Positions 7,745 to 54,928 of a DNA stretch of 64,000 nt are shown one piece after another. Under the pieces are notes generated by a model, which made no database searches, was not told where the DNA came from, and worked only from the letters and a program-made list of their open reading frames with translations. The position numbers and the translations under genes are program-made. The stretch comes from a virus. Within the stretch, counting starts at the first letter, position 1, and the number at the start of each line of letters is the position of its first letter. The DNA is taken from the IMG/VR virus record IMGVR_UViG_3300012953_000014, positions 92,636-156,635 of that record; one strand, given 5' to 3'.

Positions 7745-8841
7745 TAGCAATCCTCCAGATCTTCTTCTGTAACATCAGACTTATAATAATCTCTGTTACT
7801 GATCTTTTGTTGTTGTTCAAGGTCATCGCAACTTAACATTCTCGAAGAGAATATTCCTTGAGCTTTGTCAGCTGGTTTTAATCTGCACAATGTCTCTTGA
7901 CCAATCTCGTGATCAACTTTGACATCAAAATAATATTCAACACAGTTTGGAGTTAGTTGTTGGGGCGTCATATTGTCAGGCTCATCTAATAAAATATTAT
8001 CTTTTACTTCTTCTCTTTGTTTCATAAAATATAGCGGTATTAGATTCTCCTCTGTTGTGCCAGCAGTATTTGTGGAGTTGTCATCGACCTCAAACACTTC
8101 AATGTCAAAGTTTTCATTTTCAAAAGGAGTGTTCATTTCATCAATCTCTAAAACAATGAAGTCTTCAAAAATCCTTAAATAGTTTCCATCATTGAAGACT
8201 TCAGTGGTATAACTATCTGCAACTGGATTTTCTTGTGGAACTCCTTTTTGGACTTGGGACTTATAAGTTACTGGTGCCATCTCCAGTTGTGGTATATTAG
8301 TTATTTTTCCACCAGAATCAGTCTTATAGTGTTTAGAAGTAAGAATCCTTCCCTGCAATACATCAACATTAAAGGCAGATTTTTTATTTGTTCCCAAAGC
8401 AGACCGACCTAGAGCGGAGTCTGCACCATGGATTTTCGCTGGGGTTGACTGAACAAAAGGATCAATTTTTGTTACGTCTGGTGGCAGTTGTTGATCTGGG
8501 AATAGACTAGGAATCATATCACTCGGTTTATTAGTCGAGTGAGCTTGTACAACTTTGGTTATGTCAGTTTCTATACCACTAAAAACATATTGTGTTTCAA
8601 GGCGGAGATCCTCTTTTATCCTATCTTCGATTTCGTTTTGGGGTTCTGCTGGCCAAGAGTTTCCGTCGCGATCACCTGTTTCATCATTCTTATTTGGTGC
8701 GGCATATTTTCGATCATAAATCACATCATCATCAAAAAAAGCATAATGGGATGGACGGAAATCACCCTTTGATAATAGGTGTTTGCCATATTGAGTTAGT
8801 TTAATATCAATAACTCTCTCTTTTTTGTTTAAAAACTTCAT
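7744..8841 (-). CDS. Putative baseplate/tail-fibre attachment protein
   Basis: N-terminus IDIKLTQYGKHLLSKG...YAFFDDDVIYD resembles the LT-x-x-G start of tail-collar/fibre attachment domains. ATGA-coupled to the giant upstream gene. Function is inferred. Confidence 0.5.
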   Translation of the reverse strand: MKFLNKKERVIDIKLTQYGKHLLSKGDFRPSHYAFFDDDVIYDRKYAAPNKNDETGDRDGNSWPAEPQNEIEDRIKEDLRLETQYVFSGIETDITKVVQAHSTNKPSDMIPSLFPDQQLPPDVTKIDPFVQSTPAKIHGADSALGRSALGTNKKSAFNVDVLQGRILTSKHYKTDSGGKITNIPQLEMAPVTYKSQVQKGVPQENPVADSYTTEVFNDGNYLRIFEDFIVLEIDEMNTPFENENFDIEVFEVDDNSTNTAGTTEENLIPLYFMKQREEVKDNILLDEPDNMTPQQLTPNCVEYYFDVKVDHEIGQETLCRLKPADKAQGIFSSRMLSCDDLEQQQKISNRDYYKSDVTEEDLEDC

Positions 8842-11800
8842 TGGGATTGTGTTTTAATTCCTTTTATAGTTTTTTCGACAAACTCTGTTTCTGTCTCTAC
8901 TTCTGCCAATTCTACCAAACTAAAGTAATCATACGGCCAGTTATAACTATATGGCAAATCAACATTTCCAACGTTAAATCTGAAATCAAACTTTGAATCA
9001 TCTGATGTGTCTGCTGTTAGTTTGTAGTAATCTACGTTGGCTTTTCTCTTTACTTTGAAGACCATCCACCTTATGTTATTTGGCAACCTTTTGCCATGAT
9101 AAAACTCATTTTCTCCAAGGCCATGTTCAAATATATTATTATCAATATTGCTGTCAGACATTTTACCATTTTGTGATATTTTTGGCATTAGACCTTGCCA
9201 AATGTCTGCCAAATCTTGAGAATCAAGAGTGTGATTAAACTCAAATACATAAGCAACGAATGGATTAACTTTCATGCCTTTTTTCGAGAAAGTTATAAAA
9301 TCCAACTCTGGTGGCATTACATATTTATCTAAAGATTCCATCATGTTTGTTATTGAATCGCTTGGGATTTCTGGCGGCTCTGTTTGTGGTTCTAATCTGT
9401 TACTTTCTAACCACTTTAAGTAATAGTTAAAAGTCTCGTGATTGATTTTGAACAAGTTTTTATCAAGTATACTGGTTGTTTCTGCGAAACCTGATTTTGG
9501 ACCGTATTGATGCTCAGTGAATGGTATTGCAACAATCGCTTCGGAGATTGTTTTTTCATCAGCTATTTCTCCTACTTTCCTTGCTTTTGGTGATTCAAAA
9601 CATTTTCTCAATAGCGAATCTTTTCCTTTTGGAAAGGTTCCTTTAAAAGTTTCTTCAATACCAAATGAAATGCCATCAGATCCTGTTACCAATTTGCCAT
9701 ACCCGCTCCACATTCCTCGGCCAGAACCTTCTTCATATGGTTGATCAGCAAAGTTTAGAACAGGTGTTTCCATTCTTGATGAGATTACCCACCTATTTCT
9801 TGAAGAATCAGGGGCGTCGACCACCTCTAACAGATTCCCCTTTTCATCCAAACGAGTTTGTTTTTCTTGGAAAATACCAAAAGGATTAACGGATGCAGTT
9901 AATCTCATTTGACATGCCTCTGCCGGTGACAATCTTGGGCTTGACACTTGTGCATAAGCAATCTGGGAGCCGCTGTAATATAGAGAAACATCTGGGAACA
10001 ACTCTTGACCAGGCTTGATTGACGAGGTTGTATTCCATTTTCCTTGACTTGTGTAGAATGTTTCATAGTTTACACCATAAGAGTATTCAGTTGCCGATGC
10101 GGTCAAAGTTCCTGTGTTAGCGGTGTTTGTGTATTGATAAAGAACATCCCCATTACGTTCAAGCTTGATTCTTAAAAATCCACCATCTTGCAAAAGCCCT
10201 TTTGGAGACACGTAAGGATTGTCACCTTCAAACTCCCAGACAAAAAGTTGCCCATTGGCAGAGTGTTGAATCGCAAATTCCATATCGGTATAATCACTTG
10301 AGGCACCAGGACCTTGGTTAAGCCCAGCTATAACATCGGTTCGTGCTGCTGCTGTTCCAACAGATGGAATATTCCATTCAAAAAACTGTCCGCCGCCGAC
10401 AGAACTTGAAAGCTTATCTCTAGCTCCAACATTCCATGCGCCTGCATTGGCAGTCTTTATTAGGTTAAAATACCTATCTCGCCCACCAGGACCTTTAGAG
10501 CCACTGCATTCAAATGTGGCGTTAGAGTTTAACACATCCCAATCTACAAAGTTTGATCTTTTATGTGTCTTATCAAACATGCCAGTTAGTTGATCATTTT
10601 TATAATCTATAAATGATTTTTCAAAAACTTTTTGATAACTGAAGCCGCCTTTTTCATCATCGGCATCTGCAACATAAGCAATAGTTAGACCTGACTTTCC
10701 ATAAAAATATGGTGGCGTCCATGGGGCATATGCTGGATCTCCATTATTCTCAGGGAATGAAAAATGAAAATAAGTATTTTGTGTATCCAAAAATGAAGTG
10801 CATCCAGCATTATAATACTCATCTCTGCCATCACCAAACTTGGCGGGGGGTCCAAAATATTGTCCGTTATAAGTAATCGGATCTGCATTTGATCTTGTTG
10901 CAAATGAATAGTGTTGTTTTCTATACACATCTGTGGATCCACTATTATTGAGAAAGTCATCAATCATAACGACGTTATCATCTTTTTGCAGATAAACATC
11001 CATATAATAAGTTGTACCAGATACCAAACTCACTTCCTCTTGTCTTTTTGAACTAATAGATTTGAGTGAATTGTTTCTCAAAAAGAAGTTTGGTATTTCT
11101 GCAAAAAAGTTATTACTAGCCATCTTATACAGTCGATATTCTTCTGAGTTTTGGGCATTCTTGCGATTTGTGGCTGCGATTTCTACATAAGGATGTCTTT
11201 TTATGTTACTTCCACCCCACTGATTATTATCCCAGCCATCAAAATAATAACTTGGATTTAACAATGAAAGACTGCCACTTCCAGGTTTTGGATCTGCTTG
11301 AGGCGCTTTTGGTTGCAACTCTTCGTCTGTCGGAGCAGGAAAACCAACATCACCTAAAGGATCTAGTATGGATTCAAAAGGTATTCTAAAGTCTGCCAGT
11401 TGATCGATCACATAGTTATTAATAGCACCGGCAGTCGAGCTTCCAGAATATATATTAACTGAGCTAGAGTACGCTGCCCAATCAACAGCGATACCGGCTT
11501 TGATCGTGTTGTACATGATACCTGGTGCATAAAATGGTTGCAACATTGATTGAACAGCTAGGGCACCAGAATGTTCGAATGACGCTTTAACACCTTCACC
11601 TTTTGTCCACCCAATACCATTAATAAATGGGCCGATAGATTGTGAAAACTGTGATGCTAACTGTAAACTTCTTTGTGCTGGGTAAAAGCCATTGTATGGC
11701 AATAGCTTCTTAACAGCGTTGCATTTTATAGTTACTTTGTTGAGAGCAAGATCTTCTGAAAAAGTTCCAAAGTATTTTTGGAAATCGCTGTTGGAATACT

Positions 11801-14800
11801 CTTTAAAAAACTCTTTATTAAATCCACGAGAACCATCAGATTGTGTAACATAATCTGCACTGGAGGTAATATTAGCTCCCTCTAGTGATAAAAATTTATC
11901 ATTCTTTTTAAGGAAGTTCCCTTCAGAATAATATTTTATATGATCTGACATTTTAAATTCTGGAACAATAGAATATGCTTTTGCCACACCCCTCATATCT
12001 GAAATATATTCTTCATAACTGTCAAACCATGGTTGTTTACCAGAATACTCTGATGCTTTCCAAGATAAACGCCCAAAAGAAGAGGTGTTATTATTTAACA
12101 TTTTAGAGCTTTTATGATAATAGTATGCCGAAGCTGTCGGATAATGTGAAGTTTGATATGCTATGGTGCCTGGTATTGCAGAACCAGAGGAGTTACCAAC
12201 AAGACCTGCAAGCGTTTGATAGTTGGCAGAATTAAGTTCTCCAAAATCCGTGTAAGTATTAATAACTTCATCAAGGAACGAACCATCACAAGCTTCATTT
12301 ATAGATGCGGACAGAGATAAGGGCTTTTTCAAAGCTTCTTCAATCATTGAACATTCTATAAATGCTGCTGGTGTTTGACCAAGCCCATACAAGTTGGATG
12401 AAAAGCCATCATAAAAACCCTGTGAGTTTGGAAGAGTAGTTTGGAAGTTGTTTGGTGTTGCACCAGTCAACTGACAAACCTCTGCTGCATCCTGATTAGA
12501 GGAGGAACGAGCCACTTGGGTTGCTACTTCAAACTCTAATCTTCTGTTTCTGTTTTTAGCATTAGACCGCCAGAAAGTACGTCTTGTCAAAATATCTCTA
12601 TCGACACCGTTGTCTCCGTCAGAAACAGATGCTGAGTTGTTTTCTGTTACTGTTGCAGTTTCTGCATAATACAATCTTGCTCTATTTTTGGCCAAGCCGG
12701 TAAAAATTTCTCTAGGATAAACAACTTCACGATAAGAAAAACTTTCAAGGTCAGCAGACTTTTGGAGACTACTTCTGTCATAAATATTTTTAAGTCTGTA
12801 ATACGGCAAGTCCATTTGATTTTGAGACTCGTCAATAGCCAAAACCTCTTTAAACTTACTATTTGCAAAAGTTCCAATAACATTTCCAAAACTGTGCCTG
12901 AACGTTGTTGAGGCACCTAAAGAGCCGCTGGGTTGTACTGCGGTTTCAAGAGCGCGATATCTAAAACTAACAGGTGGTTCCACCAAACTTGCTGTTAAGA
13001 CATGTTTTTTTAAGTCAAAATTTGTCCTTGATTTAAACGGTTGTAAGAACTTAACGGTAGTTCCGATTGTCTTAGTTCCGTCTCTAGTTTTCTTAGCTGG
13101 TATAACACGGCTAAATAAACCACCGTTGGCATATGCTGAAAGGATGTTGTTTACCTTTTGGTGTCTAGCTATCGGGTGTTGTCCAGCTCTGATTTGTTTC
13201 CATGAAGCTTGGCCCCAAGGACCATGGCGGTGAGTAATAATACCATTAAAAATAGCTGCACACGAACTGCCACCGGCTTCATCGTCGGCACATGGGGCGG
13301 CTCCCAAGAAGTCTGTGTTCAAATAACTCTGGTTATTATTAGCAGCTGGAAAGCCCAGTGTTCTTGTTGATGCGGTTAGTGGTTCATAAATATTTGAATT
13401 TATTCCCACGAAATCATTTGGAAGGAAGTTGTTATAAGCACTATTAACTTCCACAGAACCAGAATAATAACCATATTGGCGATAGCCATTTGATACATGG
13501 AATGCGGATCCGATTACGCTTTGAGAAATGAATGCAGGCATCGATGCACTAACTGAAGTTGAACCGGTTGGAACAGAAAAGTTTGTTACATACCCATATG
13601 TATCGAGATGCGAAGATGATATTGAAGCTGTTATCCAGGCATACTGATTCGCACTTCTTGGTATTGGGTGTTGAATATACCAGTTATCATAGTTAATCGT
13701 TCCACTCTTTGTACCTTCATAATCGTTATCATACTTTCTGCTTAGTGCGCCGATACGACGGGGGTTGCGATTCGTTTTGTGGTACGCTGCAATTGTATTA
13801 TAGTTGTTTGCATTGGTTGTGTGTTGCGCCTCAGTAGTTCCATCACCGATTGTTCCAGTTGGGTCAATACCAAACTGACCGACATGCTCTATTTGCCATT
13901 CATGCAAAGCATTTCTCACAATCAAGTTTCTGTTATTCAAGCCATTATATACTGAAAATTCTTCTGCATATAAATCTAATGCGCCACGAGACATAGTGTC
14001 TATGCCACCGGGTGAGCTGAACCTTTGAACAACTATTGATTTGCCAGAACCAGTTAGGTCAAACCTTGGTAAAGAAAAATCTTTAGAACCAGAAATGTTA
14101 GTTGAAGAGGCTGTCGCGGGGGAAAAGCCTTCGTTCTTAGTGAAGAATCTGTTGTTCTGTGTTCTTCCAAAAGTCAACATGATTTCATAATCATTTTGAT
14201 AGTTTCCGGCGTTGGCAGAAGAGGTTCCCCATTTAATATTCCTAATGTTTACTGGACGTTTTGCATGTTCTTCTCTAAAATACTGTGCTCTTGGTTGAAC
14301 GGCGGAACGAGCAGAAAAGTTTAAGAAAGGATCTCCTCCAAATGTAGCGTTCCATGCCTCTGCTCTTGTGAGCGTCGTATCCGTGGATGCGGTATTTATA
14401 TTTGTATGTCTTACTTGGCGGCCACCGACATGCCTTTCGGTAAATGGACCCTGCATCGGGATTTCGCCTTTTTCATACGAATCATCATGATAGTTTGTGA
14501 TTCTCGCATATTCAACGTGTTTAACAAAGGGTGCGGGCGTTGTTCCACTAATAAAACCTTGTTCAACGTTGTTCTTAAACTCTGTTGCTGATGCGCTATA
14601 GAGACTGAATCTTGCCAACAAAGCACCCTTAGCTTCCACATAAGAGTCTGGGCCGTTTGTTTTGACTTGGTTATTTTTCAAAGTAAAGTCAACTCTTGAC
14701 TTTTTGTTTGGATCGGCCACGTCATGACAAATCGGGTGAAACTTAAGAGAGCCCGAACCGCCTGTTGAAAGTTTATTGTCAGTGTCAAAAACGGAGTTGA

Positions 14801-17800
14801 GGGCTGTTTGAAAATAGTCTACAACCTTTTCTCCGTCATAATTTGAACCACCCCGAATCGTTTTATTATATTTTGTCTCAATAACAACTGGTGCGTTAAA
14901 AAATCTTCGATTAAATGCACTTAGAGTAGCAGAATGTATAAGTTGTCTATCTGTATCTACCGCTGCATCTCCCGATGAAATATAATCTTTTCTTTCTGCT
15001 TTGTGCTTCCACCAAAAACAATGTTTATTTTGAGATGGCGGTGACTCGGGTAGTGTGGGCGAACCTTCTTGGTACGGAAATTTTTGACGCCCAGCGCCCA
15101 AGAGTTGTGATTTAATGGTGTTACCTTTAAACTCAATCGTTGGATACTTTGTCCAATATTTATTCCTCTCCAAGACATGGCTCTCAACCATGGTCAAAAG
15201 ATTTGTGGAAAAATCAGCAGATGCAGGGAACAACTGAACCAACATTTTTGAAATAGAGTTGTCGGCCCATTTATAATAGTCCACAAACTTGTCAAAATCA
15301 ATTGTATCATTCTGGATTCTTGAAAAGTAAATCTCTCTTAGCTTTTCGAGTTGTTTATACTCCATCCTATATCGGTTTACTGGTTCACCAATCAGGTTAT
15401 TAAAATCTTTAATGGTAGAGAATACTTTAAGAATCTCATCTGATAAGATTGCATAAAGACTTTTTTCTGCTGCGAAAAAGAATGATATTGGTCGCGACTC
15501 TCTAGTGAATAAACTATCATCGTTTGAGCTAACAAGTTTAACCATATCATTGCTGTTCAAAACATCTGGCTTTAGCTTTTTCGCAGTATTTACATACTCT
15601 CTACTGACAGAGCCCGTGTCTGATACCGGGAAGTTATATCCGCGACCTGGGTGTCTAATATCTGCAATCGGAGCTAACCAGCCATAGTTTAGTTGGCCGC
15701 TTGCGGAAGATAGTGTTGATGAGCCAGAGGTTGCATCTTCTACGAAAAACTGGCCGTCAGCATTTGAACCTGTTGTGGTATCAAATGTCCAATGAAGTGC
15801 AAGAGTTTCCATTTGGGGAATCTGTTTAACGTTTCTTGCAAAACCATTGGAGTCTGGTGCAGAACCAGATTGAGAAGTGTAAGCATTCCTAAGTGGATTA
15901 TCAACACCAAAACTTGAAGGATCGGTTGCGTGTGATTTTATTGTAGTATCAGACAAGTGATCAGCCCACACACGTAATGAGGAGATCTTAGCATCTGAGT
16001 GTTCTCTCAATGTTCCCGTAAAGTTTGTGCGGTGGGCACCGACAAAAAATCTTTTTGAGCCTGTCATGAAGAATTTTGCAGAACCACTATCTAAAGTTCC
16101 GGTAACAGAAAAAGAGTTTTGAATAGTATCTTGAATGGCGTTGTAGCCAGTAAAGATAATGTCATAGTTAGAACCACTAACACTTCCTGTAACAACGTCA
16201 CTTCCACTAAGGGCATTAGCATAAGGGTAAGTGGTTGGTTTTATTCTAACATTTAAATTCCATCTAGTGTTGTCATAAACATGATTAAACAAACTACTGG
16301 TCAAAGTAGGTAATGGATACGGGGCAGTTCCTGTGAGTTGGAAAAACACGGAAGTTGAACCGGACTCAGGGCGGATTGCCTGGACTTGAAAGTTTGATAA
16401 ATCGGGGCCAAGTGCCGAATCTTCCCAGCCAAAATCATTTGGAGAGGCCACATCAACAGTGTGAGCGCCGAAAAGAGAACTTGTCAAGAAGTTTGTTTGA
16501 TAATATTCTGTTGAACTTCTTTCAACTTTCTTGGGAAAAATAACTTCAGCTTGATATGTGTTACCACGATAACGCATTTCTGATGATGAAGATACATAAG
16601 ATCTGGTATTTGTTGCATCTCCGCTAGCTGTCTGTTGAACCACTGTTGATTCAACTTTATTTTCTGTACTAAAATTAGCGTATCTTTTTCTTATTATGGA
16701 AGACTCAAAGTTGTTCCTTATCAGGTGTGTTGTATTGTTTCCATAAAGATTTAACTTTATAAGATTTTCATCAACACCATAACATCGAATCAAGTTTCTA
16801 AAAGACTGCTCTGTGCCTTTTGATTTCAGGATCAAAGGAAGGTTGTTATAGATATTTTGATATACTCGGTTTTTTATCTCGTCAAGTTTAGTGGAGAAGT
16901 TTATTAAATCATCTCTCTTTCCAAACGCCTCAAGTGCGGTAGCATCAGAAAACAGTTCAGACATATCTATTCCCATAGATTCAACCAGTCTATTTGTAAA
17001 TGGGAATGGCTTAAAACTTCCACTAATATAGTCTGCATCTTTTAATCTTGGTAAAAAGTCTATTTGAAGCTGTAAAGTATCAAAATAACTGCCGATTATT
17101 TGTGTAAGTTTTAATAAAGTATCTCTATCGTTTTCAAGATCACCTTCTTGAATCCATCCTGGTAGGGTGTGAAAAATCGATGAGTTGTTTGTTCTATCAT
17201 AAAATTCACCTTCTGCTTCCTTAACTTCCAAAGAGCTTGAAACCAGTGGGTGAGTAGAATATAAAATTGGGTCTTTAAACTCTGTTAAAGATGCACTACT
17301 TTCAGTAATCGCAGAAGAAGTTGAACGAACACCAACTTGGTATCCTGTCCATTCACCATTGGAAACTCTACCAGAATAATCCAATATGATTGCATCGGTT
17401 GTGTCTGTGCTAGAAGTGTTAAACACACCTTCATTAAATTTATAGTAAACACCTAAATCAACTGGGTTCCCTGGGCTGTATTTGTTTGAACCTGTTCCGA
17501 CTGTGTTGTAGTCTGTATTGGTTCCGCCGCCGACTTGGGTAAACCAATATTTACCTATTTCATTTCCATCACGTTCTGTTTTCCAGAACCTAAGCTCATC
17601 AAGAGAAGCAGATAATGAGCCAGAGAACTGTGCGCCCGCTGTACCAGAAGCATGGGCAACTAGGGAACCGATCTGGCCAATCATTGATCCGGTTATCAGA
17701 TTAATAGTTGAGCCCGTCAGAACTGTATTTTCTAAAGCTCCATTTCGATATAGTTTGCACTCCATTGCACTGCCAGAGTTGGCAAGGGTGATAGCATAGT

Positions 17801-18647
17801 GGTTCCAACCACCAATAAGTGAGGTGCTTGAGCTAATCGCAACGTCCGTGTGATTTAAAAAAGAACCCGATAATCTTGCGGCAGAAAGACCATCAGTACC
17901 AGAAAGCATTGTAACATTGAAGTATTGACCAACACTTGTCTCTGAACCTGTGATTTCTACCCTAAAACGACCATAATCATTGTTACCAAAAGATGCACTA
18001 TTCCAGACATCAAAAATAACTTGCTTTCTTGATTCTTCAAATTGGTCATAATTAAAGGCAGATCTGGATAGCCAAAACTCTAAGGTAACACCTTTTGTTC
18101 CGTCAATCTCTAAGTTTGATTCCTGTCTCGTATCTGCATCATAGACATTGGATGCAGTAAAGTTAAGCGCCATGGTGCCTGAACCATTGTAGTTTTCTGC
18201 ACGGTGGGGGCCGCCTTTAAAAAAAATGCCCTCTATGTTCGTTGATGCGTCATAGTTGTTTGCTGAACCTGTAGCTGAAGTAATGGTTCCAACATTTTTA
18301 CCTAACTTGATATAACCCGTTGTTCTTGGGTAAATATTTTCAAAGATATATTTATCTAAATAAGTTCCACTTAACTCCCACTGAACTCTTTCTTTAAGTG
18401 ATCCATCGTAAGGATACTCATTGTAAACATAAGAATATGCATTTTTGTAATATTCTTTTGCAGAACCATATACACAAAAATTAGAGGCTGTTAGAAAATC
18501 TATATGGGGAATAAATTTTGATTGATTCTCTGATTCTGCCTTAATATATTCAGCAGACTCAACTTTTCGTCCAGCAGAGTTTAAGCTCGCGGAGGCGACG
18601 ATTTTTGAGGAAAAAGAGTTTTTAAACAGATCTTTTGTATTGGCCAT
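8838..18647 (-). CDS. Giant (3269 aa) baseplate-associated virion protein with LamG/ConA-like domains and a gp7/P2-gpI-like motif
   Basis: LamG signatures: TLEFW, WNHYAIT, LYRNG, LDELRFWKTER, YYKFNEG, and a second copy ISSLRVW...LHWTFD. NLPLILKSKGTEQSFRNLIRCYG resembles the KGT motif of wedge proteins. It lies downstream of the gp25/gp6 genes. Confidence 0.7.
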   Translation of the reverse strand: MANTKDLFKNSFSSKIVASASLNSAGRKVESAEYIKAESENQSKFIPHIDFLTASNFCVYGSAKEYYKNAYSYVYNEYPYDGSLKERVQWELSGTYLDKYIFENIYPRTTGYIKLGKNVGTITSATGSANNYDASTNIEGIFFKGGPHRAENYNGSGTMALNFTASNVYDADTRQESNLEIDGTKGVTLEFWLSRSAFNYDQFEESRKQVIFDVWNSASFGNNDYGRFRVEITGSETSVGQYFNVTMLSGTDGLSAARLSGSFLNHTDVAISSSTSLIGGWNHYAITLANSGSAMECKLYRNGALENTVLTGSTINLITGSMIGQIGSLVAHASGTAGAQFSGSLSASLDELRFWKTERDGNEIGKYWFTQVGGGTNTDYNTVGTGSNKYSPGNPVDLGVYYKFNEGVFNTSSTDTTDAIILDYSGRVSNGEWTGYQVGVRSTSSAITESSASLTEFKDPILYSTHPLVSSSLEVKEAEGEFYDRTNNSSIFHTLPGWIQEGDLENDRDTLLKLTQIIGSYFDTLQLQIDFLPRLKDADYISGSFKPFPFTNRLVESMGIDMSELFSDATALEAFGKRDDLINFSTKLDEIKNRVYQNIYNNLPLILKSKGTEQSFRNLIRCYGVDENLIKLNLYGNNTTHLIRNNFESSIIRKRYANFSTENKVESTVVQQTASGDATNTRSYVSSSSEMRYRGNTYQAEVIFPKKVERSSTEYYQTNFLTSSLFGAHTVDVASPNDFGWEDSALGPDLSNFQVQAIRPESGSTSVFFQLTGTAPYPLPTLTSSLFNHVYDNTRWNLNVRIKPTTYPYANALSGSDVVTGSVSGSNYDIIFTGYNAIQDTIQNSFSVTGTLDSGSAKFFMTGSKRFFVGAHRTNFTGTLREHSDAKISSLRVWADHLSDTTIKSHATDPSSFGVDNPLRNAYTSQSGSAPDSNGFARNVKQIPQMETLALHWTFDTTTGSNADGQFFVEDATSGSSTLSSASGQLNYGWLAPIADIRHPGRGYNFPVSDTGSVSREYVNTAKKLKPDVLNSNDMVKLVSSNDDSLFTRESRPISFFFAAEKSLYAILSDEILKVFSTIKDFNNLIGEPVNRYRMEYKQLEKLREIYFSRIQNDTIDFDKFVDYYKWADNSISKMLVQLFPASADFSTNLLTMVESHVLERNKYWTKYPTIEFKGNTIKSQLLGAGRQKFPYQEGSPTLPESPPSQNKHCFWWKHKAERKDYISSGDAAVDTDRQLIHSATLSAFNRRFFNAPVVIETKYNKTIRGGSNYDGEKVVDYFQTALNSVFDTDNKLSTGGSGSLKFHPICHDVADPNKKSRVDFTLKNNQVKTNGPDSYVEAKGALLARFSLYSASATEFKNNVEQGFISGTTPAPFVKHVEYARITNYHDDSYEKGEIPMQGPFTERHVGGRQVRHTNINTASTDTTLTRAEAWNATFGGDPFLNFSARSAVQPRAQYFREEHAKRPVNIRNIKWGTSSANAGNYQNDYEIMLTFGRTQNNRFFTKNEGFSPATASSTNISGSKDFSLPRFDLTGSGKSIVVQRFSSPGGIDTMSRGALDLYAEEFSVYNGLNNRNLIVRNALHEWQIEHVGQFGIDPTGTIGDGTTEAQHTTNANNYNTIAAYHKTNRNPRRIGALSRKYDNDYEGTKSGTINYDNWYIQHPIPRSANQYAWITASISSSHLDTYGYVTNFSVPTGSTSVSASMPAFISQSVIGSAFHVSNGYRQYGYYSGSVEVNSAYNNFLPNDFVGINSNIYEPLTASTRTLGFPAANNNQSYLNTDFLGAAPCADDEAGGSSCAAIFNGIITHRHGPWGQASWKQIRAGQHPIARHQKVNNILSAYANGGLFSRVIPAKKTRDGTKTIGTTVKFLQPFKSRTNFDLKKHVLTASLVEPPVSFRYRALETAVQPSGSLGASTTFRHSFGNVIGTFANSKFKEVLAIDESQNQMDLPYYRLKNIYDRSSLQKSADLESFSYREVVYPREIFTGLAKNRARLYYAETATVTENNSASVSDGDNGVDRDILTRRTFWRSNAKNRNRRLEFEVATQVARSSSNQDAAEVCQLTGATPNNFQTTLPNSQGFYDGFSSNLYGLGQTPAAFIECSMIEEALKKPLSLSASINEACDGSFLDEVINTYTDFGELNSANYQTLAGLVGNSSGSAIPGTIAYQTSHYPTASAYYYHKSSKMLNNNTSSFGRLSWKASEYSGKQPWFDSYEEYISDMRGVAKAYSIVPEFKMSDHIKYYSEGNFLKKNDKFLSLEGANITSSADYVTQSDGSRGFNKEFFKEYSNSDFQKYFGTFSEDLALNKVTIKCNAVKKLLPYNGFYPAQRSLQLASQFSQSIGPFINGIGWTKGEGVKASFEHSGALAVQSMLQPFYAPGIMYNTIKAGIAVDWAAYSSSVNIYSGSSTAGAINNYVIDQLADFRIPFESILDPLGDVGFPAPTDEELQPKAPQADPKPGSGSLSLLNPSYYFDGWDNNQWGGSNIKRHPYVEIAATNRKNAQNSEEYRLYKMASNNFFAEIPNFFLRNNSLKSISSKRQEEVSLVSGTTYYMDVYLQKDDNVVMIDDFLNNSGSTDVYRKQHYSFATRSNADPITYNGQYFGPPAKFGDGRDEYYNAGCTSFLDTQNTYFHFSFPENNGDPAYAPWTPPYFYGKSGLTIAYVADADDEKGGFSYQKVFEKSFIDYKNDQLTGMFDKTHKRSNFVDWDVLNSNATFECSGSKGPGGRDRYFNLIKTANAGAWNVGARDKLSSSVGGGQFFEWNIPSVGTAAARTDVIAGLNQGPGASSDYTDMEFAIQHSANGQLFVWEFEGDNPYVSPKGLLQDGGFLRIKLERNGDVLYQYTNTANTGTLTASATEYSYGVNYETFYTSQGKWNTTSSIKPGQELFPDVSLYYSGSQIAYAQVSSPRLSPAEACQMRLTASVNPFGIFQEKQTRLDEKGNLLEVVDAPDSSRNRWVISSRMETPVLNFADQPYEEGSGRGMWSGYGKLVTGSDGISFGIEETFKGTFPKGKDSLLRKCFESPKARKVGEIADEKTISEAIVAIPFTEHQYGPKSGFAETTSILDKNLFKINHETFNYYLKWLESNRLEPQTEPPEIPSDSITNMMESLDKYVMPPELDFITFSKKGMKVNPFVAYVFEFNHTLDSQDLADIWQGLMPKISQNGKMSDSNIDNNIFEHGLGENEFYHGKRLPNNIRWMVFKVKRKANVDYYKLTADTSDDSKFDFRFNVGNVDLPYSYNWPYDYFSLVELAEVETETEFVEKTIKGIKTQSQ

Positions 18648-18663
18648 AACTTACTATTCTACT

Positions 18664-20274
18664 TTATACGTTAGGTATCATTTTTTCTACTCTAAATTTA
18701 AAATCTTCAGTCTGTTCTCGATAACTCCCGTTTAAGTAATAGCAAAACTTTATGCCATAAGCATATCCCGGTTCTAATAAGCCCATATCTAAATCAAAAT
18801 AACTCCCAGAAACATCGTATGAAAGTTTTGTATGATCTGCACTTCCGGTTCCGTAACTAATAACATCATGATTATCAACAACTCTGTAAATTCTAAAATA
18901 GGCATCCTCGACAATTGATGTCTCAATATCAGTTGATGCTATTGTATAAATAGTAGGATTCCAGTTTCTTAAGCGCGTAAACAATCTAAAGCGAGCGAGT
19001 TCTTGGTAATGATATTGCTCTCTTAGGTTTGAAATAGTTGTCACATAATCAGGCATTGAGAAGTGGGCTGAGGTGCTGAAATCTTCTGGATTGATGGAGC
19101 CAGTGTGATAATATATCAAATTTGTATCGTTAGCTTCTCCATCAGATGCGGTCCACCAACGATCATAAACGATATCACTGCCTGTTGCTATAGCCATAGA
19201 AGCAGAATATATTCCTGTTGAAACTTTTCCTCCGGTTATTGGCTGATATATGCTGTCAACGTATGGCCAAGTTTGTACTCTTGAGCTTCCATCCCCATCA
19301 GAGGCGGAAGTGTGAACAGTGACATATATTGAACCAGAAACGTCACCGGATGGATGGGCCAAATCTTTGAGTTGACCTCTCACATAGTTGTAAAGGTATA
19401 TTGTATTTAAGTTATCTGCTGCGCTCAGGTTTGAGCTAGAAACAACAAATGTTCCTCTATGATCTTTTCGAGATGAGTTCCACCTTGCTTCAATGCAGGG
19501 TCGCTTAAAGAAGTATTCGCTCGTTCGTGAAGAAAATCTTTTTGTATAATAAGATCTTACAGAACTACTTTCTTGGCTTGCTGTTAAATATACTACGACT
19601 CCATAGTTAGTGTATCCTGGATTTCCCGCTGGGTTGTTCTGGCCTGTGCCCAAAACCCATTGTTCCACCAGACCCGTTATATCAACACTGAGATCTTCTA
19701 CTCCGGTTTCGAATGAGGAGGAATAGTTAAACTCATTGTATCTTGTGACTGGTGAACCATTCCAAGAGGCACTCAAAATACTGCCACCAGGAGAGGAGAC
19801 ATCCGTGCCGTCTTCGTCTTTGACAACCCAGTTTGTACTAGCTCCTGCGTTTACCCAGTTAGATCCAGTGCCATCATAAGTTAAGTCTTTGTAGTTGTCT
19901 AAATCAACTCCCGAACCTTCTTCCCAGGATTGAGAAAGTGGGGCTACAACTAATGTAAAATTCCTAGGGAGAGTTTGATCGTGTCTTACATTATAAAGGT
20001 TTAAAAAGAAATTTACACTTCCGCTTTTAGGGATGTCTCCGTTTGTTCGATCCTGCTTAATGCTAGAACCTGTTGTATCGCTGGTCAATATGGGGAACTT
20101 GAAAATGGTTCTTGATTTCTCAACGGAAGCACTGTTTTGTTGTCCAAATATTGAAAAAATCTCAACACTATCCGCCGCTCCAGCATTGCTACCTGTTGCG
20201 CGAGTAGCCAAGTCGGGCTCGTATGCATTTGTTATTGTGTTGTCATCAACTGCAATATATCTTTTAATAGTCAT
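18664..20274 (-). CDS. Virion protein with DNRLRE-like beta-sandwich domain
   Basis: Pattern DNTI...SN.G...SRTIFKF...LSQSWEEG...W...DITGLVEQW...NYGVVV...FSSR...RP.IE; TAATG-coupled to the gp6-like gene. Confidence 0.6.
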   Translation of the reverse strand: MTIKRYIAVDDNTITNAYEPDLATRATGSNAGAADSVEIFSIFGQQNSASVEKSRTIFKFPILTSDTTGSSIKQDRTNGDIPKSGSVNFFLNLYNVRHDQTLPRNFTLVVAPLSQSWEEGSGVDLDNYKDLTYDGTGSNWVNAGASTNWVVKDEDGTDVSSPGGSILSASWNGSPVTRYNEFNYSSSFETGVEDLSVDITGLVEQWVLGTGQNNPAGNPGYTNYGVVVYLTASQESSSVRSYYTKRFSSRTSEYFFKRPCIEARWNSSRKDHRGTFVVSSSNLSAADNLNTIYLYNYVRGQLKDLAHPSGDVSGSIYVTVHTSASDGDGSSRVQTWPYVDSIYQPITGGKVSTGIYSASMAIATGSDIVYDRWWTASDGEANDTNLIYYHTGSINPEDFSTSAHFSMPDYVTTISNLREQYHYQELARFRLFTRLRNWNPTIYTIASTDIETSIVEDAYFRIYRVVDNHDVISYGTGSADHTKLSYDVSGSYFDLDMGLLEPGYAYGIKFCYYLNGSYREQTEDFKFRVEKMIPNV

Positions 20275-22073
20275 TATTTAACATCCCCTCTAATATCCGA
20301 TGCTGGAAACTTAAGTTCCATGATAACATTGTCAGGAACGGTGATGAAGCGCCCATCCGGTGAGGTCGCTTTGTCAACATTGAATCTGGTTTCTGCATAG
20401 TTTAGTCCAGTTTTTGATGTTATCTTAACACTTACCGTATCTACAACACCATCAACTTGGTTTAGTTCGTTGTAGATATCTGTTATGAAAAACGGTTCTC
20501 CGATTTCAAGTTTGTTTTCATAGAATGATGTCAAAGCTTCAATCGCTCTGTTTAAGATAACAAACTTATTTGTCTCCAAGTCGCCAACTATGACAAAATC
20601 TATACCGAAGTTAACAATCTTTGCATCAATAATATCCACTGTATCATTTATCATTCTGCCTTGGTTTAACCAAGTTTTAACATTTTGTTTTATTGTTGTG
20701 TTTGGAGCCTCTAAGTTGCCTTCTGAAGATTCGCCAATAACATATATGTTTAAGTTTCTTTTAAAAGAGTCTGGGTCTCTGATGATGTTTGCTCTTTTGA
20801 TGCCGCCGAACTCCGGGGGCATTGCATATATTAAACTTCTATAATCCTGTTCTGTCACCGCTCTTCTTTGTGAAGAAAAACTGTCATTTATTCTTATCCT
20901 TAGTTCGTCTATTGATGGTAAAGTGACATCGCCATTTATTGGCTTTTCGTTGTTAACCTCTAAAGAATTAACGATTTCAGATATCTTTGTCGTGCTCAGT
21001 TCCATAATGTTGTTGAAGTCAATGATTGGATTAGTTATGGTTGATAAAGAGTTTACAGGGGCATTAACATTGCCAAACACATTAGTTCTGTATACAACTG
21101 TTATATTTGTATTTGCGGGGGCGACACCCAAAGTTGGGGTTCCCAAAAGATTTGTTGGGTCAAACGACAAAGAAGAAATATATTCTCTTCCATGAAAGTT
21201 GGCGATTGTTTTACTTGGGTCTGTTATGGAATCAGTATTGGTGGCGTCCTCTTTTGCTCCACCAAATTGGATTATTGTTGAGTCTTCTAGTTGCTCAACA
21301 GTGTATCTTCTTGGAACTATTATGGGTTTTAGCACAGATGGTGTTTTTGCACGATTCGAGTCATAGTTTTTGACGGGGGCGTATATCACATCTTGTGACA
21401 AGTAATCCACCCTAAAATATTCATTACCCTCTGAATCTGTTATAGAAATGATTTCCGAGATGTTTTCTCCGGAAAGTTCAATCTTCCTAAACTCCTCAAA
21501 TGATCCTATAGCAAGAACTTCTTGTGAAAGTTCGCCGGAAATAACTTGTCCAGTTGCACGTACTGCATAATGTGTTGGCAGGCCCGTTGAAGAATTTACT
21601 TTTGCAACAACAACTTCGTTGCTTGGATCAGACAAGCTAACATCCTCATTTAATATGAAACCTATACCGCTAGAGGACTGAAGCTCTGTGCCTCGTCTGA
21701 CATAACCCAAATAAGCAGAATCTGGACCCAAACCTGTGGAAGCTGCTGGAATTATGGCGTAAAAAGACGCCATACCAAAAGAGGAAGGGCTACCTTTAAA
21801 TTGATACCCCAACTGTCGACCTAGACGCAATACATTATCATATTCAATCGCAGTATCAAGGAAGCTTTCGTTTGCACTGTAATCTAAGTAAAAGGATAAA
21901 ATGTCACCGACATATGAAACTGTGTCAAGCATAAGAGAACCAAAGCCAGCTTCATTGAAGTCTTGAAATGTATTTGGGTAATACCTTTTTGCATATTCAA
22001 TCAGATCATTTTTGATTGAATTAAAATCTCTTGATGTATAATTTATGGCTGGATATTGCTTCTTGACTGTCAC
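20274..22073 (-). CDS. Baseplate wedge subunit, T4 gp6-like (baseplate J superfamily)
   Basis: YTSRDFNSIKNDL, DFNEAGFGSLMLDTVSYVGDILSFYLD..ANESFLDTA and QRRAVTEQDY motifs; adjacent to the gp25-like gene; GAGG RBS. Confidence 0.9.
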   Translation of the reverse strand: MTVKKQYPAINYTSRDFNSIKNDLIEYAKRYYPNTFQDFNEAGFGSLMLDTVSYVGDILSFYLDYSANESFLDTAIEYDNVLRLGRQLGYQFKGSPSSFGMASFYAIIPAASTGLGPDSAYLGYVRRGTELQSSSGIGFILNEDVSLSDPSNEVVVAKVNSSTGLPTHYAVRATGQVISGELSQEVLAIGSFEEFRKIELSGENISEIISITDSEGNEYFRVDYLSQDVIYAPVKNYDSNRAKTPSVLKPIIVPRRYTVEQLEDSTIIQFGGAKEDATNTDSITDPSKTIANFHGREYISSLSFDPTNLLGTPTLGVAPANTNITVVYRTNVFGNVNAPVNSLSTITNPIIDFNNIMELSTTKISEIVNSLEVNNEKPINGDVTLPSIDELRIRINDSFSSQRRAVTEQDYRSLIYAMPPEFGGIKRANIIRDPDSFKRNLNIYVIGESSEGNLEAPNTTIKQNVKTWLNQGRMINDTVDIIDAKIVNFGIDFVIVGDLETNKFVILNRAIEALTSFYENKLEIGEPFFITDIYNELNQVDGVVDTVSVKITSKTGLNYAETRFNVDKATSPDGRFITVPDNVIMELKFPASDIRGDVK

Positions 22074-22488: not shown

Positions 22489-25400
22489 TTATTCTTCCTC
22501 CTCAGTGTCTACATTCTCTACATAGGCGCTAGTATCAATTGGTTCCAAATTACAATCATCTGCTCTAGTATAATCTCGGCCACCGGCTTCTTTTTGAGCA
22601 CATCGTCGACTTTCAGCAACGTCACTATTACCTTGGTTTTCAATCCAATCGTAAACACCCAAAGAGAAGTCATATATCCAACCAAAAGGAACTGTTGGTG
22701 GAATCCATGTTGCTCCAAAAATTGCCATTGATATTGGAAGAACTGGAAGATCTGGGATTCTGATTGTTCTTTCGCACGAGTCTAACATGCCCGCATCTTC
22801 AAGGGCATTTTCCCCTTCACCAATTAAATTGTTTGCAGCTCTAATACCTGCATTTGCAGCGAACTGAATCTGTTTAGATATTGCAATATTAGGATCAAAT
22901 GTTTCTGTTAATCCTTTTAGGATCATTGGTGGGAACTTAATGGCCAAAGACCACAAATCAACTCCAGGGGTTTTATTATCTCCATAGGTATCACTAAAAT
23001 CTGATGTAGCTAAGACCTTGTTGGTCAACGGGTCGGCGTATTGATAGTTTCCACTATTAAGCATGGCATCAAAAATAATTCTTAACGATTCCTTAGTGTT
23101 GTTAAATGTTCTGGTTACGTCACCGTGTGATGCCAAGAATGTCTCTATAAACATAATATTTTGGGCGAACATTCGATCAACAGGGAACAAATATTTGAAA
23201 AACAACTTAAATTCATCAGTGTTTGTTAGAGAATCAATCAAAACTTGATTAACCTTTCTATCATGATACATTCTTAATCTATATTTTTCTTCCTCGATGG
23301 CATTCAATCCCACTCCAACAAGTTCTGCCAGATTTGTGTCAGAACCAATTGGTTCTTCAACGGCGACCACTGGAAATGTAACATATGATTTATCTATTGT
23401 TCTTATTGTTTCTTGATTGGTGTTTGCGTCATATTCAGTAACTGTTCCAACCTCATTCATAAGATATGCTTTGTCCCTTTTAATTCCTTCCACCACATTT
23501 ATATCTCTTGATCTTGCACGGACTTTATTTAATAATGGAGAATCCTCAGATGGTGAGGCGACACAGGTCATTCTTAAACCGACATTAAGACTTTCAAATA
23601 AATCAGAAATCTTAATAACTTGCGACATAACTGTTGCTTCAGTTTGTGGAGTTATGAATACCAAATTTTCACCACATTCGGCCTCTGTCATAACAGCTTG
23701 AATCAACCTTGGGTTTCCTGGGACATTAACATCAGCATTTATGAGTTGTTCATCTGAGGGTCCAAAGTTTGAGGTTAACCACTCAGCGAACTTATCAATA
23801 TTTACAACTCCCGTCTCCGAGGTAGTCATATTATTTAAAATCGCGCTCACTTGATTATATAAGTTACCTGAACTGTCTATCTCTTGCAGATCTCTTCTAA
23901 GGTTTTCTTGGGACTTATGTCTAACTTTAATATATTTTTCGTATATTACGTTTCCATTATCCATGAACCAAGTTAGAGGGCTTCCTTTTGGCTCACGCAT
24001 TTTTCTTAGGCGGCCCATTTCATCAAGAACTTCTTGCCTCTTCCTTCTTCTTCCATCAAGATCTTTAGCGGACTCGTCTTTTACATATTGTGCAGCATCC
24101 TTGATTTTGCCTAAGAAATCAGTATAATCTTTAATCTCCCTATAATCTCTAAAATCTGGAGATAACAAGTAAAAAGCTGCTAACTTTGACATCCACCAAT
24201 CGATTTCCCACATCAAGTGATATGCATATAGATAAACAATTTCCGGAGTGCCCATTCTACTGTAATCTGATGTACTGAATGTTGTGTTTCCATCCGTGTA
24301 TCTTGGGCCATAATGCGCTTGAGTGCCATTGTTATCTCTCAACGATAACATTTCATCAAAAACTTCTCTAAATGTTTTATTATTGCTCCTCATGAAATCA
24401 CGGACAATATTGTCACTAACTCCTGTTCTACCGCCTGCTGATTGGAGTCCATATTCGTGACTCTGCTGGCTTAAAACAGGGTGTCCTCTCTGAAAAGTCG
24501 GTCGCCTTGACCAGCCATCTGGTTCTGTTGTCCAGTTTCCGATGGTTGTTCTGTATTGAGTTCTTGCTGGCTGATAAGCACGATACGTATCATAAAGGCG
24601 TGGAATATAGTTTGGATTCGGGTTTTGAAGATTTTCTATTCTATTTTTTAACTGATCTAAAATAAATGTTAGAGTTGCTGGTTTCCAGACTTTACCCAAT
24701 CGTTGAACATGTTTTTGAATAGATGATTGAAGATTTGCTACGGTTGGAAGAGGACGATCATTCCATTTGCTATTTAAAAAGTCTTTACCGATTTTATCCA
24801 ATCTTTTTCTTTCAGAATATGATAAGGCCCAATGATGCTTGTTCGACCAAAATTGCCTCTTTATATTTAAATATAACGCCTCATCGTCCCAAACATTCCA
24901 TTTATCATAATACTCTATTTCCGCTTGTATGTCTTCAGGCAGAGAAGGTATTGTTCCCTCTTGCATGTTATACTGCATCATTTTAGGGTGAAACATATCT
25001 TCCGCTAAATATTCAGGCTGCGGGAAGTTGAAGTTCTTAGCTTCAGGTAACGTGTCTTGTTCTATAAGCCGATAAGTCCATGTCTTTCTTGGCATTCTGT
25101 GATATGGAAGTTCCATATTTTTTTTGTGCCCATAGTGAGCAGGCACTTGATTTTCTGGGACTCTTGGATTTCCATCTGTGTGATAGGGTTCACTGTAGGA
25201 GTCCTCATACCATGCATATTTTGGCCCATAAAAAGAATTTGGAGTATATGCCTTTTTAGCTGAAGGTAGTTCAACCAACCTGTACATAGGATACACATAT
25301 GTCGATTGGCCTCTGGTTGCATTATAATTTATCCCAACAGGTGTGCTATATGAGGAGCCAGCGTTACCTGGCATCAAAACATTTGGACAATTAAATATTT

Positions 25401-34309: not shown

Positions 34310-35272
34310 TTATTTTAGTGATTTATAATCTTCATTATACATCATCTTACATAGTTCTTCAAATTTAACTTTTGGTTCCCAGTTCAAAACCTTCTTTGCT
34401 TTCGCGGGGTTGCCCAACAAATAGGGAACTTCTTGCGGCCTGAATAGTCTTGGGTCAATCTCAACATATTTGTCCGGATCTAACCCCGCATAATCAAACA
34501 CACAATCTAAAAATTCTTTAACACTATATGTCTCTCCTGTGGCGATAACATAATCATCTGGGTTGTCTTGTTGTAGCATGAGCCACATTGCCTCGACGTA
34601 ATCTCCGGCAAAACCCCAATCGCGCTTAGCATCTAAGTTGCCAAGGAAGAGTTTATCTTGTAAACCAAGTTTAATGTTAGCGGCTGCCATCGTAATCTTT
34701 CTTGTTACAAATGTTTCTCCGCGTCGGGGGGATTCATGATTGAAGAGGATCCCGCTTGATGCATGTAACCCATAACTCTCTCGGTAGTTTCTAACCAGGT
34801 TGTGTGCAAAGACCTTAGCACAAGCATATGGAGAAGCAGGCGTCAAAATAGAGTCTTCATCAAATGGATATTCTGGATTGTCCCCATACATTTCTGATGA
34901 TGATGCTTGGTAAAATCTTGATTCTGGGCAGACTTTTTTGACCGCATTCATAATCCTCAAAGAACCCATTGCAATACTATCAACTGTGTGTTCTGGAATA
35001 TCAAATGAGACCCTAACATGCGATTGGGCGGCGATGTTATATATTTCATCAGGTTTAATATCCATCAACATTTCCCACATTGAAGAAGTATCATTCAAGT
35101 CGTGATATCTTAAGTGAAAGTTGGGGTTGCCGAAAATGTGATCTATTCTTGATGTGTTGAATGAAGATGATCGTCTTTTCAATCCATATACTTCATATCC
35201 TTTATCTAACAATAGTTCTGTAAGGTAAGAACCATCTTGGCCTGTAACGCCAGTTATAAGTGCTTTTTTCAT
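34310..35272 (-). CDS. gmd: GDP-mannose 4,6-dehydratase
   Basis: [69 protein letters not shown]. Confidence 0.97.
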
Positions 35273-35300
35273 TTATTGTATTAATCCACCTGTTAAAAAT

Positions 35301-35309
35301 ATTATAACA
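35301..35309 (-). promoter_or_regulatory. Extended -10 element (TGTTATAAT) upstream of gmd
   Basis: TGnTATAAT in the AT-rich fcl-gmd spacer; no clear -35. Confidence 0.45.
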
Positions 35310-35344
35310 TTGTTTTTATTAATTTTGTTGGTATTTTTATATTC

Positions 35345-36280: not shown

Positions 36281-37067
36281 TTAATATCTCCTCTAATGAA
36301 ACATATTCTATTATTTCGTGAAGATTGGAGTTTGGACTTGAGGAAAGAATCTCAAAATGAATACCACTATTGTTTTTATACCTATTAATATCTTTAAGAA
36401 ACTTAGTCCACAACCAAAGGCCGCCATCATCTTCAGAGGGACCCTGGTCAACACCTTCTTCAAAAAAGTAAGGATTGAAATAGTCTGGATGGAAATGTTC
36501 TAAATCTTTTCCCTGTTCAATTGACTCTTCTCTGCGCCCGTAACGACAATCCACGCCAAGCAAAACTGCTCTCTTGTATCCCAACATATAAGAAAGGTTT
36601 GTGGCAAAAATTCCACAGTTTGCATATGCATGAGGGCTAATATATGGCTTTTGCCTTTCTAGTGGTGCAGAGTGAAGTTCTGTTATCTTATCTATACCAA
36701 TCTTTTTACATATGCTGGCCCCATAAAAAACATTAGTGCCTTCGGGTATATTAACCACCTTACTGTGTTGGCTGGCCGCGCTTTTCGAGGCAAGTTGGCT
36801 AATGAAGAATTTCTCTATTTTACATTCAGGGTTTGTAATGTATTTTTTTAATATATCTTTTTTGAATATTTTGTCTATAAGTCTACTGTCTATTAAACAA
36901 TAATATTTGGGCTCGAAGCCCCAATCTTCGAAAGCTATGTATTGGCGATTCATTCCGAAAGTTTCTAAGTTTTTTAGAAGAGAAATATCTATCTCATTTA
37001 ATGATGGGCCTGATCCTATAATAAAAGCTGTTTCATCTAGCGTTATATTTTTATTCTCGTTTCCCAC
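36267..37067 (-). CDS. DUF115/Maf/CstII(GT42)-like transferase
   Basis: AFIIGSGPSL...TFGMNR and LGYKRAVLLGVD...HFHPDYF. Confidence 0.7.
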   Translation of the reverse strand: MGNENKNITLDETAFIIGSGPSLNEIDISLLKNLETFGMNRQYIAFEDWGFEPKYYCLIDSRLIDKIFKKDILKKYITNPECKIEKFFISQLASKSAASQHSKVVNIPEGTNVFYGASICKKIGIDKITELHSAPLERQKPYISPHAYANCGIFATNLSYMLGYKRAVLLGVDCRYGRREESIEQGKDLEHFHPDYFNPYFFEEGVDQGPSEDDGGLWLWTKFLKDINRYKNNSGIHFEILSSSPNSNLHEIIEYVSLEEILNGKR

Positions 37068-38495: not shown

Positions 38496-38507
38496 TTTTT
38501 TACCTCT

Positions 38508-42549: not shown

Positions 42550-42552
42550 ATT

Positions 42553-43407: not shown

Positions 43408-43411
43408 TTCA

Positions 43412-51432: not shown

Positions 51433-51433
51433 G

Positions 51434-54914: not shown

Positions 54915-54928
54915 TTTATTATTTTCTC

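Follow-up and report, generated by a model that had tools for sequence, protein, structure and literature searches.

The stretch of DNA analysed here (the window) is the right-hand 64 kb of one 156,635-bp virus contig, IMG/VR record IMGVR_UViG_3300012953_000014 (positions 92,636 to 156,635 of the record; here genome G000), with a completeness estimated at 71% by CheckV and a G+C content of 38%. Nearly all genes of the window lie on the minus strand. The contig encodes a Gp23-type major capsid protein, a 1005-amino-acid (aa) tail sheath and a T4 gp6-like baseplate wedge subunit, and this set of hallmark genes therefore places the phage as a distant T4-like myovirus; a search for a close cultured relative found none. 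Two regions of the window are considered in detail. One comprises adjacent genes for a giant 3269-aa peripheral baseplate or fibre-module protein (8838..18647, minus strand) and a 536-aa virion protein (18664..20274, minus strand), the latter directly downstream of the gene for the 599-aa wedge subunit (20274..22073, minus strand; phrog_6, E 1e-22). Both proteins are rich in the tripeptide [S/T]-[G/A]-S, written [ST][GA]S below. The other is an island of sugar genes headed by two adjacent genes for soluble glycosyltransferases, GT4-425 (GT-B fold; 52285..53562, minus strand) and GT4-466 (family GT4; 53541..54941, minus strand).

Expected motif counts assume independent positions; for the proteins of the window they are the mean of 2000 shuffles each. 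The 3269-aa protein contains 52 [ST][GA]S motifs against a shuffle mean of 8.93 (standard deviation 2.94, z 14.7) and the 536-aa protein contains 15 against 1.79 (z 10.1), with none of the 2000 shuffles reaching the observed number in either case. The N-terminal third of the giant protein is the densest, with 27 of the 52 motifs within its first 1030 residues. The wedge subunit serves as a motif-free internal control (0 motifs, 1.0 expected), and the window proteins of 2533 and 1197 aa hold 2 and 1 motifs, with 2.7 expected in each. The manual counts in a preliminary description of this DNA (15; about 50; 27; none; one or two) are thus reproduced, as is its rough estimate of about two chance motifs for the 536-aa protein. 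Preference among related tripeptides is marked, with a tally of 23 SGS, 18 TGS, 13 SAS and 13 TAS against 7 SGT, 5 TGT, 0 AGS and 5 GGS. All six serine codons are used for the motif serines in background proportions, and Tandem Repeats Finder returned no tandem repeat in 8838-20274; the signal is therefore at the protein level, as had been proposed, and a DNA-level cause was ruled out. Flanking residues are variable except at position -1, which is hydrophobic in 47% of sites compared with 31% in the background.

Searches of the 3269-aa protein against Pfam, PHROG and the PDB gave no match, and a PDB sequence search with the 536-aa profile was likewise negative. A poor AlphaFold2 model of the 536-aa protein (mean predicted local distance difference test, pLDDT, 60.9) shows beta-sandwich domains, and a fold search with it returned only generic Ig-like matches with TM-scores <0.2. 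The earlier label of this protein as DNRLRE-like does not hold up, as the match to NF033679 is below threshold (16.3 bits against a cut-off of 34, E 0.0076) and covers only 47 residues. Thousands of homologues occur in metagenomes for the 536-aa protein and likewise for GT4-425; for the 536-aa protein these are marine metagenomes.

The enrichment had been described for two virion proteins, and a genome-wide scan shows that it is wider, extending to at least 10 G000 proteins. The enriched set holds 132 motifs with 29.6 expected, compared with 32 against 43.9 in all other open reading frames (ORFs), and the motif is four to eight times above chance in the presumed outward-facing proteins of the particle. 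In addition to the two proteins above, the set includes the tail sheath (10 motifs, 3.2 expected), a 405-aa and a 372-aa protein encoded just left of the window (12 against 1.65 and 9 against 1.86), an 873-aa Ser-rich protein (16 against 7.2), several small proteins and, weakly, the capsid protein (4 against 1.45). The wedge, portal, terminase and tape-measure-like proteins are unenriched, and internal and non-virion proteins do not exceed their expected counts. When no motif was assumed, TGS and SGS ranked first and second of the 8000 tripeptides by over-representation in G000. BLAST among the enriched proteins detected no paralogy except between the C-termini of the 405- and 372-aa pair, and a shared paralogous fold as the cause was ruled out with that sole exception.

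Two groups of proteins outside the window carry features related to this set. The 873-aa protein (L002:13251-15872, plus strand) and its 141-aa neighbor (L002:12607-13032, plus strand) have homologous C-termini, with 48% identity over 71 residues, and their genes lie on the strand opposite to almost all others; they may be a fibre and its partner. Four small paralogues of 136-172 aa (L002:16444-16872, L004:9975-10385, L004:10385-10903 and L004:10813-11229, all minus strand), three of them in tandem by the capsid gene, share NWSGSxGVG as a conserved C-terminal tail, and the orthologue in the related genome G001 ends in SWSGSVGVG. The tail could represent the same tag placed at the terminus of a decoration or tube-like protein.

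Within the sheath and capsid proteins the motifs occupy restricted regions. All 10 motifs of the sheath (L004:937-3954, outside the window) lie at residues 144-650, an insertion that separates the conserved N-terminal segment from the C-terminal core (711-1003), and all 4 capsid motifs lie at residues 161-259, a clade-specific insertion outside the Gp23 core match. Of 389 motifs counted over 48 distinct sheath homologues, 384 are within the insertion, giving observed-to-expected ratios of 3.08 for the insertion and 0.13 for the core (residues 1-100 and 701-1005). The insertions of T4 gp18 and the inserted domains of HK97-fold capsids face outward, and by analogy the sheath and capsid insertions of G000 would be outward-facing parts. 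The core of the 48 homologues holds 5 motifs where 38.2 are expected, a depletion that may mean that the tag is avoided where surfaces are buried or touch other subunits.

The number of motifs is maintained over evolution while many of their positions change. Each of the 120 homologues of the 536-aa protein (54-100% identity) has 9-16 motifs, with about 1.75 expected; 8 of the 15 sites are kept by at least 88% of these homologues, some sites alternate between G, A and S in the middle position, and motif serines are better conserved than other serines (0.78 against 0.46). Sheath motifs are spread over 87 alignment columns, and pairs of sheaths at 30-45% identity have 28% of their sites in common and keep about 8 each. 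Of the 52 motifs in the 3269-aa protein and the 38 in its G001 orthologue (3936 aa, 35-40% identity), only 8 occur at sites shared by both. Such turnover at a maintained density is what a modification signal should show and a fixed structural element should not, although alignment error in the divergent insertions inflates the apparent turnover.

The preliminary description had proposed a comparison of the motif with the glycosyltransferase repertoire across relatives, and here the presence of the motif follows that of a GT4 pair. A motif excess is present in five of five phages with the adjacent GT4 pair (G000, G001, Flavobacterium phage immuto, Microcystis phage Mel-JY01 and Rhodothermus phage RM378) and in none of five phages without it (RB59, S-RIM44, TJE1, LR756511.1 and LR756508.1), two of which belong to the same capsid clade. 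In G001, a complete genome of 195.7 kb with a sheath 42% identical to that of G000, the same orthologues are enriched (giant protein 38 against 10.4, 507-aa protein 14 against 2.1, sheath 9 against 3.0, capsid 6 against 1.5, wedge 0) and the three most over-represented tripeptides are SGS, TGS and SAS. Phage immuto (vB_FspM_immuto_2-6A, host Flavobacterium sp. LMO8), where the gene order is nuclease, GT4, GT4 and then a variable island and GT4-425 corresponds to gp180, ranks SGS first and TGS fourth and has 53 motifs in the tail spike gp101 (12.2 expected), 13 in the 373-aa protein gp056 (1.75), 8 in the sheath (2.6) and none in the wedge and portal. Mel-JY01 has 174 motifs genome-wide against 84.8 expected, with 13 flagged proteins. 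RM378 encodes a GT4 together with a remote, colinear GT4-425 homologue and shows a 5- to 9-fold excess in a fibre-type cluster. In all five motif genomes position 3 favours Ser (4.2-5.4x) over Thr (0.7-2.3x) and position 1 is Ser or Thr. The middle position in RM378 takes L, F and Y at 2.5-2.9x, compared with 0.2-1.1x in the other four genomes, and its GT4-425 homologue is the most divergent, a single case that hints at co-variation of enzyme and motif. The enriched RM378 ORFs lie at record positions 64825-67547, 70435-75968 and 77415-78503, and T-L-S, T-F-S and T-V-S are also over-used. The GT4-466 homologue of Mel-JY01 (L103:17442-18933; record 83441-84932) is annotated as two coding sequences, and tblastn alignments cross stop codons; the cause may be a genuine separation of the two Rossmann halves, a frameshift or an error in sequencing.

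Phages without the pair show no comparable pattern. No virion protein of T4-like RB59 is enriched (6 motifs against 16.5 overall) and a 3211-aa structural protein of cyanophage S-RIM44 has 9 against 8.2, so the excess is not general to beta-rich myovirus proteins. Tetrasphaera phage TJE1 has a single GT4 (25% identical) and no enrichment. The two members of the capsid clade are LR756511.1 (595 kb), with neither GT4 and 161 motifs against 144.6, and LR756508.1 (484 kb), with a lone GT4-466 homologue and 204 against 149, SGS being ranked 152nd; neither is enriched. LR756511.1 is sister to the motif-bearing clade in the capsid tree (support 98/98) and LR756508.1 is nested inside it (100/98), which implies a loss; on the simplest account the GT4 pair and the motif were gained together once and lost together once. 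LR756508.1 retains the homologous sheath and capsid domains, in which the G000 motif sites read SGA, SVN, AGD, DGT and SGV; the fold therefore does not need the motif. These comparisons, together with the restriction to insertions and the number of motifs kept through turnover, support the earlier proposal of a signal selected on exposed virion proteins, with exposure itself argued by analogy.

Presence and absence of 153 G000 ORFs was profiled against six genomes, and only GT4-425 was found in all four other motif genomes (G001, immuto, Mel-JY01 and RM378) and in neither of the two motif-free clade members. GT4-466, always directly upstream of GT4-425, was ruled out as a predictor on its own by LR756508.1, whose homologue is 31% identical and accompanied by no enrichment; other phages also carry homologues, although among cultured phages only a few do. 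GT4-425 has no transmembrane segment. Its AlphaFold2 model (pLDDT 91.3) has exclusively GT-B/GT4 enzymes among its top 50 Foldseek matches, the best being chlorovirus B736L (E 1.3e-14), and the protein O-GlcNAc transferase GtfA appears at rank 8 (E 2.7e-10) among generic GT4 folds. The EX7E motif of GT4-425 (EGFGLPLFE, 285-293) has both glutamates, E285 and E293, invariant in 48 homologues. GT4-466 carries EX7E as EGFGLATFE at 314-322, matches Pfam Glycos_transf_1 at 42.7 bits (cut-off 26.4) and also has B736L as its best PDB match (E 6e-7). Many metagenomic relatives of GT4-425 (P0145, P0164, P0168, P0225 and others) are fused to a GT2 domain, PF00535, in proteins of about 650-720 aa. We regard GT4-425, on sequence grounds, as the best candidate for the enzyme that reads the motif.

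The whole island, including the two GT4 genes, spans 34310-54941. A 283-aa protein next to the pair (51434..52285, minus strand) is 28% identical in G001 and has no Pfam or NCBIfam match. The remaining, variable part (34310..51447, minus strand) is devoted by Pfam assignment to nucleotide-sugar synthesis and further transferases, with Gmd, several epimerases or reductases, two MptE/DUF115 Maf-like proteins, SIS, two aminotransferases, a DHQS-like cyclase, SDR, a cytidylyltransferase-cupin fusion, a GT29-like protein, split transketolase halves, GT2 and two CgeB-like GT-B proteins. The island proteins have no transmembrane-like segments and are all soluble, and no Pfam family of a priming transferase, flippase, polymerase or oligosaccharyltransferase occurs among the 23 of them. 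The G001 island occupies the same syntenic place with mostly different genes; those kept are the adjacent GT4s (44% and 50% identity), the 283-aa protein, one Maf-like protein, Gmd, SIS and the cytidylyltransferase. The Maf-like proteins are about 270 aa without flanking Maf domains, with MptE-like scores of 39.1 bits (cut-off 34.6) and 27.0 bits (below it) and no NCBIfam or PDB match. They were ruled out as reader of the motif, as Mel-JY01 has the motif and no PF01973 (Maf-like) match. Pfam scans of the island revealed no NeuB-type synthase. The cyclase, a class III aminotransferase, the SDR, cytidylyltransferase-cupin and GT29-like proteins and the two-gene transketolase (38508-43407 and 47694-48825) form a set suggestive of an unusual CMP-activated sugar or cyclitol.

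The motif is probably an attachment signal for a phage-made sugar coat, judging by its sequence distribution. Under the mechanism that we propose, [S/T]-[G/A]-S would be a short acceptor signal for lipid-independent O-glycosylation in the cytoplasm of the infected cell, with a middle residue that is sometimes Ser and a preceding residue that is often hydrophobic. The glycan would be started on the motif Ser or Thr by the two conserved, soluble GT4s that head the island, with GT4-425 as the specificity-determining or initiating enzyme and GT4-466 as its constant neighbor, and the variable downstream enzymes would make nucleotide sugars and extend the glycan. Since these downstream enzymes vary, the coat would differ between relatives while the tag stays constant. 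Selection would keep tags on water-facing parts (the sheath and capsid insertions, peripheral baseplate and fibre proteins) and off buried cores and internal proteins. The enzymology is plausible given EX7E in both GT4s, the soluble island, the GT2 fusions and the B736L match. We infer from these patterns that a sugar is the modification and that a motif hydroxyl would carry it, and we favor, with some confidence, a sequon for stepwise cytoplasmic O-glycosylation of the outer virion proteins that the GT4 pair starts and the island supplies and extends. The more specific version, in which GT4-425 with GT4-466 reads a three-residue O-sequon to coat the sheath, capsid and fibres and the glycan composition is swapped through the variable island, has in our judgement about an even chance of being right. 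The earlier idea of sequon-directed glycosylation tied to a 22-gene island is accordingly narrowed: the link to phage transferases stands, but it runs to the GT4 pair, and above all to GT4-425, and not to the island as a whole, most of which varies.

Several observations weigh against this reading. The association rests on about one gain and one loss, and thus on few independent events. The sheath and capsid of RM378 are unenriched, its GT4-425 homologue is weak (E 7.6e-5 to 3e-4) and the second Glu of EX7E is Asn in the aligned region. Possibly exposed proteins of the same module (1197, 984, 442 and 365 aa) are unenriched. In the model of the 536-aa protein 9 of 15 motifs lie in loops, but 62% of the model is loop, so this placement does not discriminate. 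The presence profile covers the ORFs of a 71%-complete genome, with small ORFs and genes absent from the record falling outside it. Finally, the assumption of independent positions should be read alongside baseline observed-to-expected ratios of about 0.4 to 1.4 in the control genomes.

Some of these points would suit a signal for another modification or partner, such as phosphorylation, acylation or a decoration protein, with the GT4-425 association indirect or coincidental. The data reveal a selected signal and do not specify its chemistry, and the small number of evolutionary events and the incomplete genome with its unprofiled small ORFs count in favour of this explanation. No other G000 gene has a matching profile, however, the Pfam scans run found no kinase or acyltransferase beside the virion module, and with hydroxyl residues at its first and third positions the motif suits O-linkage by enzymes that are present. 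We consider this explanation unlikely.

The tripeptide could also be a structural or assembly element, such as a favoured turn or strand cap, of lineage-specific beta-sandwich domains, involving neither a modification nor a link to a transferase. The strongly kept sites of the 536-aa family are compatible with such a role, as are the beta-rich character of the enriched proteins and the position of most motifs of the 536-aa model in loops or strand edges. Opposed to it are the lack of detectable paralogy among the enriched proteins, the turnover of sites at a kept density, the persistence of motif-free sheath and capsid domains in LR756508.1, the unenriched virion proteins of the T4-like phage and the cyanophage and the depletion of the sheath core; moreover, a structural element is not expected to track one transferase gene. 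Overall, a purely structural role appears improbable. Equally doubtful is an action of the GT4 pair and island on phage DNA, a host envelope component or a small molecule, with the motif selected for a surface property such as hydrophilicity: glycosylation of DNA and changes of host serotype by phage transferases are documented (PMC12619734), and the island is large and variable like polysaccharide loci, but no thymidylate-synthase-family hydroxymethylase (PF00303) occurs in G000 or the complete G001, the island lacks membrane, flippase, polymerase and priming components, and a demand for hydrophilicity would not favour S/T-G/A-S over SGT, AGS or GGS.

By the features tested, the G000 system is not a member of the mycobacteriophage, chlorovirus or Maf glycosylation systems. 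Chloroviruses glycosylate their capsid with their own cytoplasmic enzymes and no host membrane machinery, mainly through N-linked glycans at atypical sites. The G000 phage would likewise build a glycan of its own on proteins of its particle, and both of its GT4s best match the GT4 protein B736L of PBCV NY-2A (PDB 3oy2), whose own function, to our knowledge, is not established; identity is only about 14%, however, and the chlorovirus host is eukaryotic. In GtfA/GtfB systems, adjacent genes of GT-B/GT4-like type encode cytoplasmic proteins that act on Ser in S-A-S-like contexts of serine-rich repeat adhesins, GtfB being non-catalytic. G000 resembles these in its adjacent GT4 genes and in the presence of GtfA among the fold matches of GT4-425, but both phage GT4s keep EX7E, Pfam detected no DUF1975-type insertion in them, and the candidate substrates are folded domains with scattered motifs rather than long low-complexity repeats. 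The heptosyltransferases of TibC/TibA and Aah/AIDA-I are also cytoplasmic and modify many serines across a beta-rich surface protein; no island protein matches a GT9/heptosyltransferase family in the Pfam scans, and the donor and the enzyme family differ. The membrane components required by lipid-linked (Wzx/Wzy, oligosaccharyltransferase) pathways are absent from the 23 island proteins.

We know of no virion glycosylation by phage enzymes shown outside the mycobacteriophages, where it occurs at C-terminal tails. There (Freeman et al. 2023, as cited in PMC12619734), glycans are found at the C-termini of capsid and tail-tube subunits, and soluble transferases of the phage itself are proposed to glycosylate capsid and tail proteins inside the cell. 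G000 likewise encodes glycosyltransferases, but its candidate sites, recognised from sequence alone, are a dispersed three-residue motif in at least 10 proteins, in insertion domains and fibres; only the four small paralogues have a C-terminal WSGS, and the lineage is one of T4-like aquatic myoviruses. Stepwise cytoplasmic O-glycosylation occurs in bacteria at sites near hydrophobic residues (PMC12645811, PMC11339370), and Maf-type glycosylation of flagellin with nonulosonic acids is a cytoplasmic, lipid-independent O-modification of surface Ser/Thr on a self-assembling structure, again near hydrophobic residues (PMC11339370, PMC12645811). The G000 island, with its two MptE/DUF115-like proteins (one of them a sub-threshold match), GT29-like protein and cytidylyltransferase, recalls such systems; it differs in that Mel-JY01 is enriched without a Maf-like gene, no NeuB-type synthase was seen in the G000 island, and the Maf-like proteins correspond in size to the catalytic core only.

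Cytoplasmic O-glycosyltransferases such as Maf have no defined sequon (PMC11339370), and for this reason a sequon of three residues that a soluble GT4 recognises would make a useful tool for glyco-engineering. If the proposed mechanism is true, the motif would become the first short sequon to be defined for lipid-independent O-glycosylation among bacteria and phages, and would amount to a portable glyco-tag. The mechanism would also mean that marine and freshwater myoviruses of a very abundant group cover their entire outer surface with glycans of their own making by means of a simple sequence tag, which would bear on particle survival in water, non-specific adsorption, resistance to proteases and grazers, and host recognition, and it would explain the large, fast-changing sugar islands of these phages. 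The sequon question is directly testable, since three cultured phages (immuto, Mel-JY01 and RM378) carry the system.

Other genes complete the picture of the window. The 2533-aa protein (22489..30090, minus strand), not enriched in the motif, has one transmembrane-like segment, and its gene adjoins that of an M23 peptidase. Directly upstream of the GT4 pair, a Pfam-assigned PD-(D/E)XK nuclease (54929..55696, minus strand) serves as a synteny anchor, and the order of nuclease followed by GT4 is common to G001, Mel-JY01 and immuto. Between positions 56021 and 56719 (minus strand) lies a gene for a 232-aa protein, probably a small zinc-metalloprotease-like one, that is 39% identical in G001 and matches PF07737 (anthrax lethal factor metalloprotease domain family) below threshold, at 24.4 bits (cut-off 27.4). 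A PIN-PhoH fusion protein (56772-58097, minus strand), 57% identical in G001, is encoded immediately upstream of the block formed by the nuclease and the GT4s.

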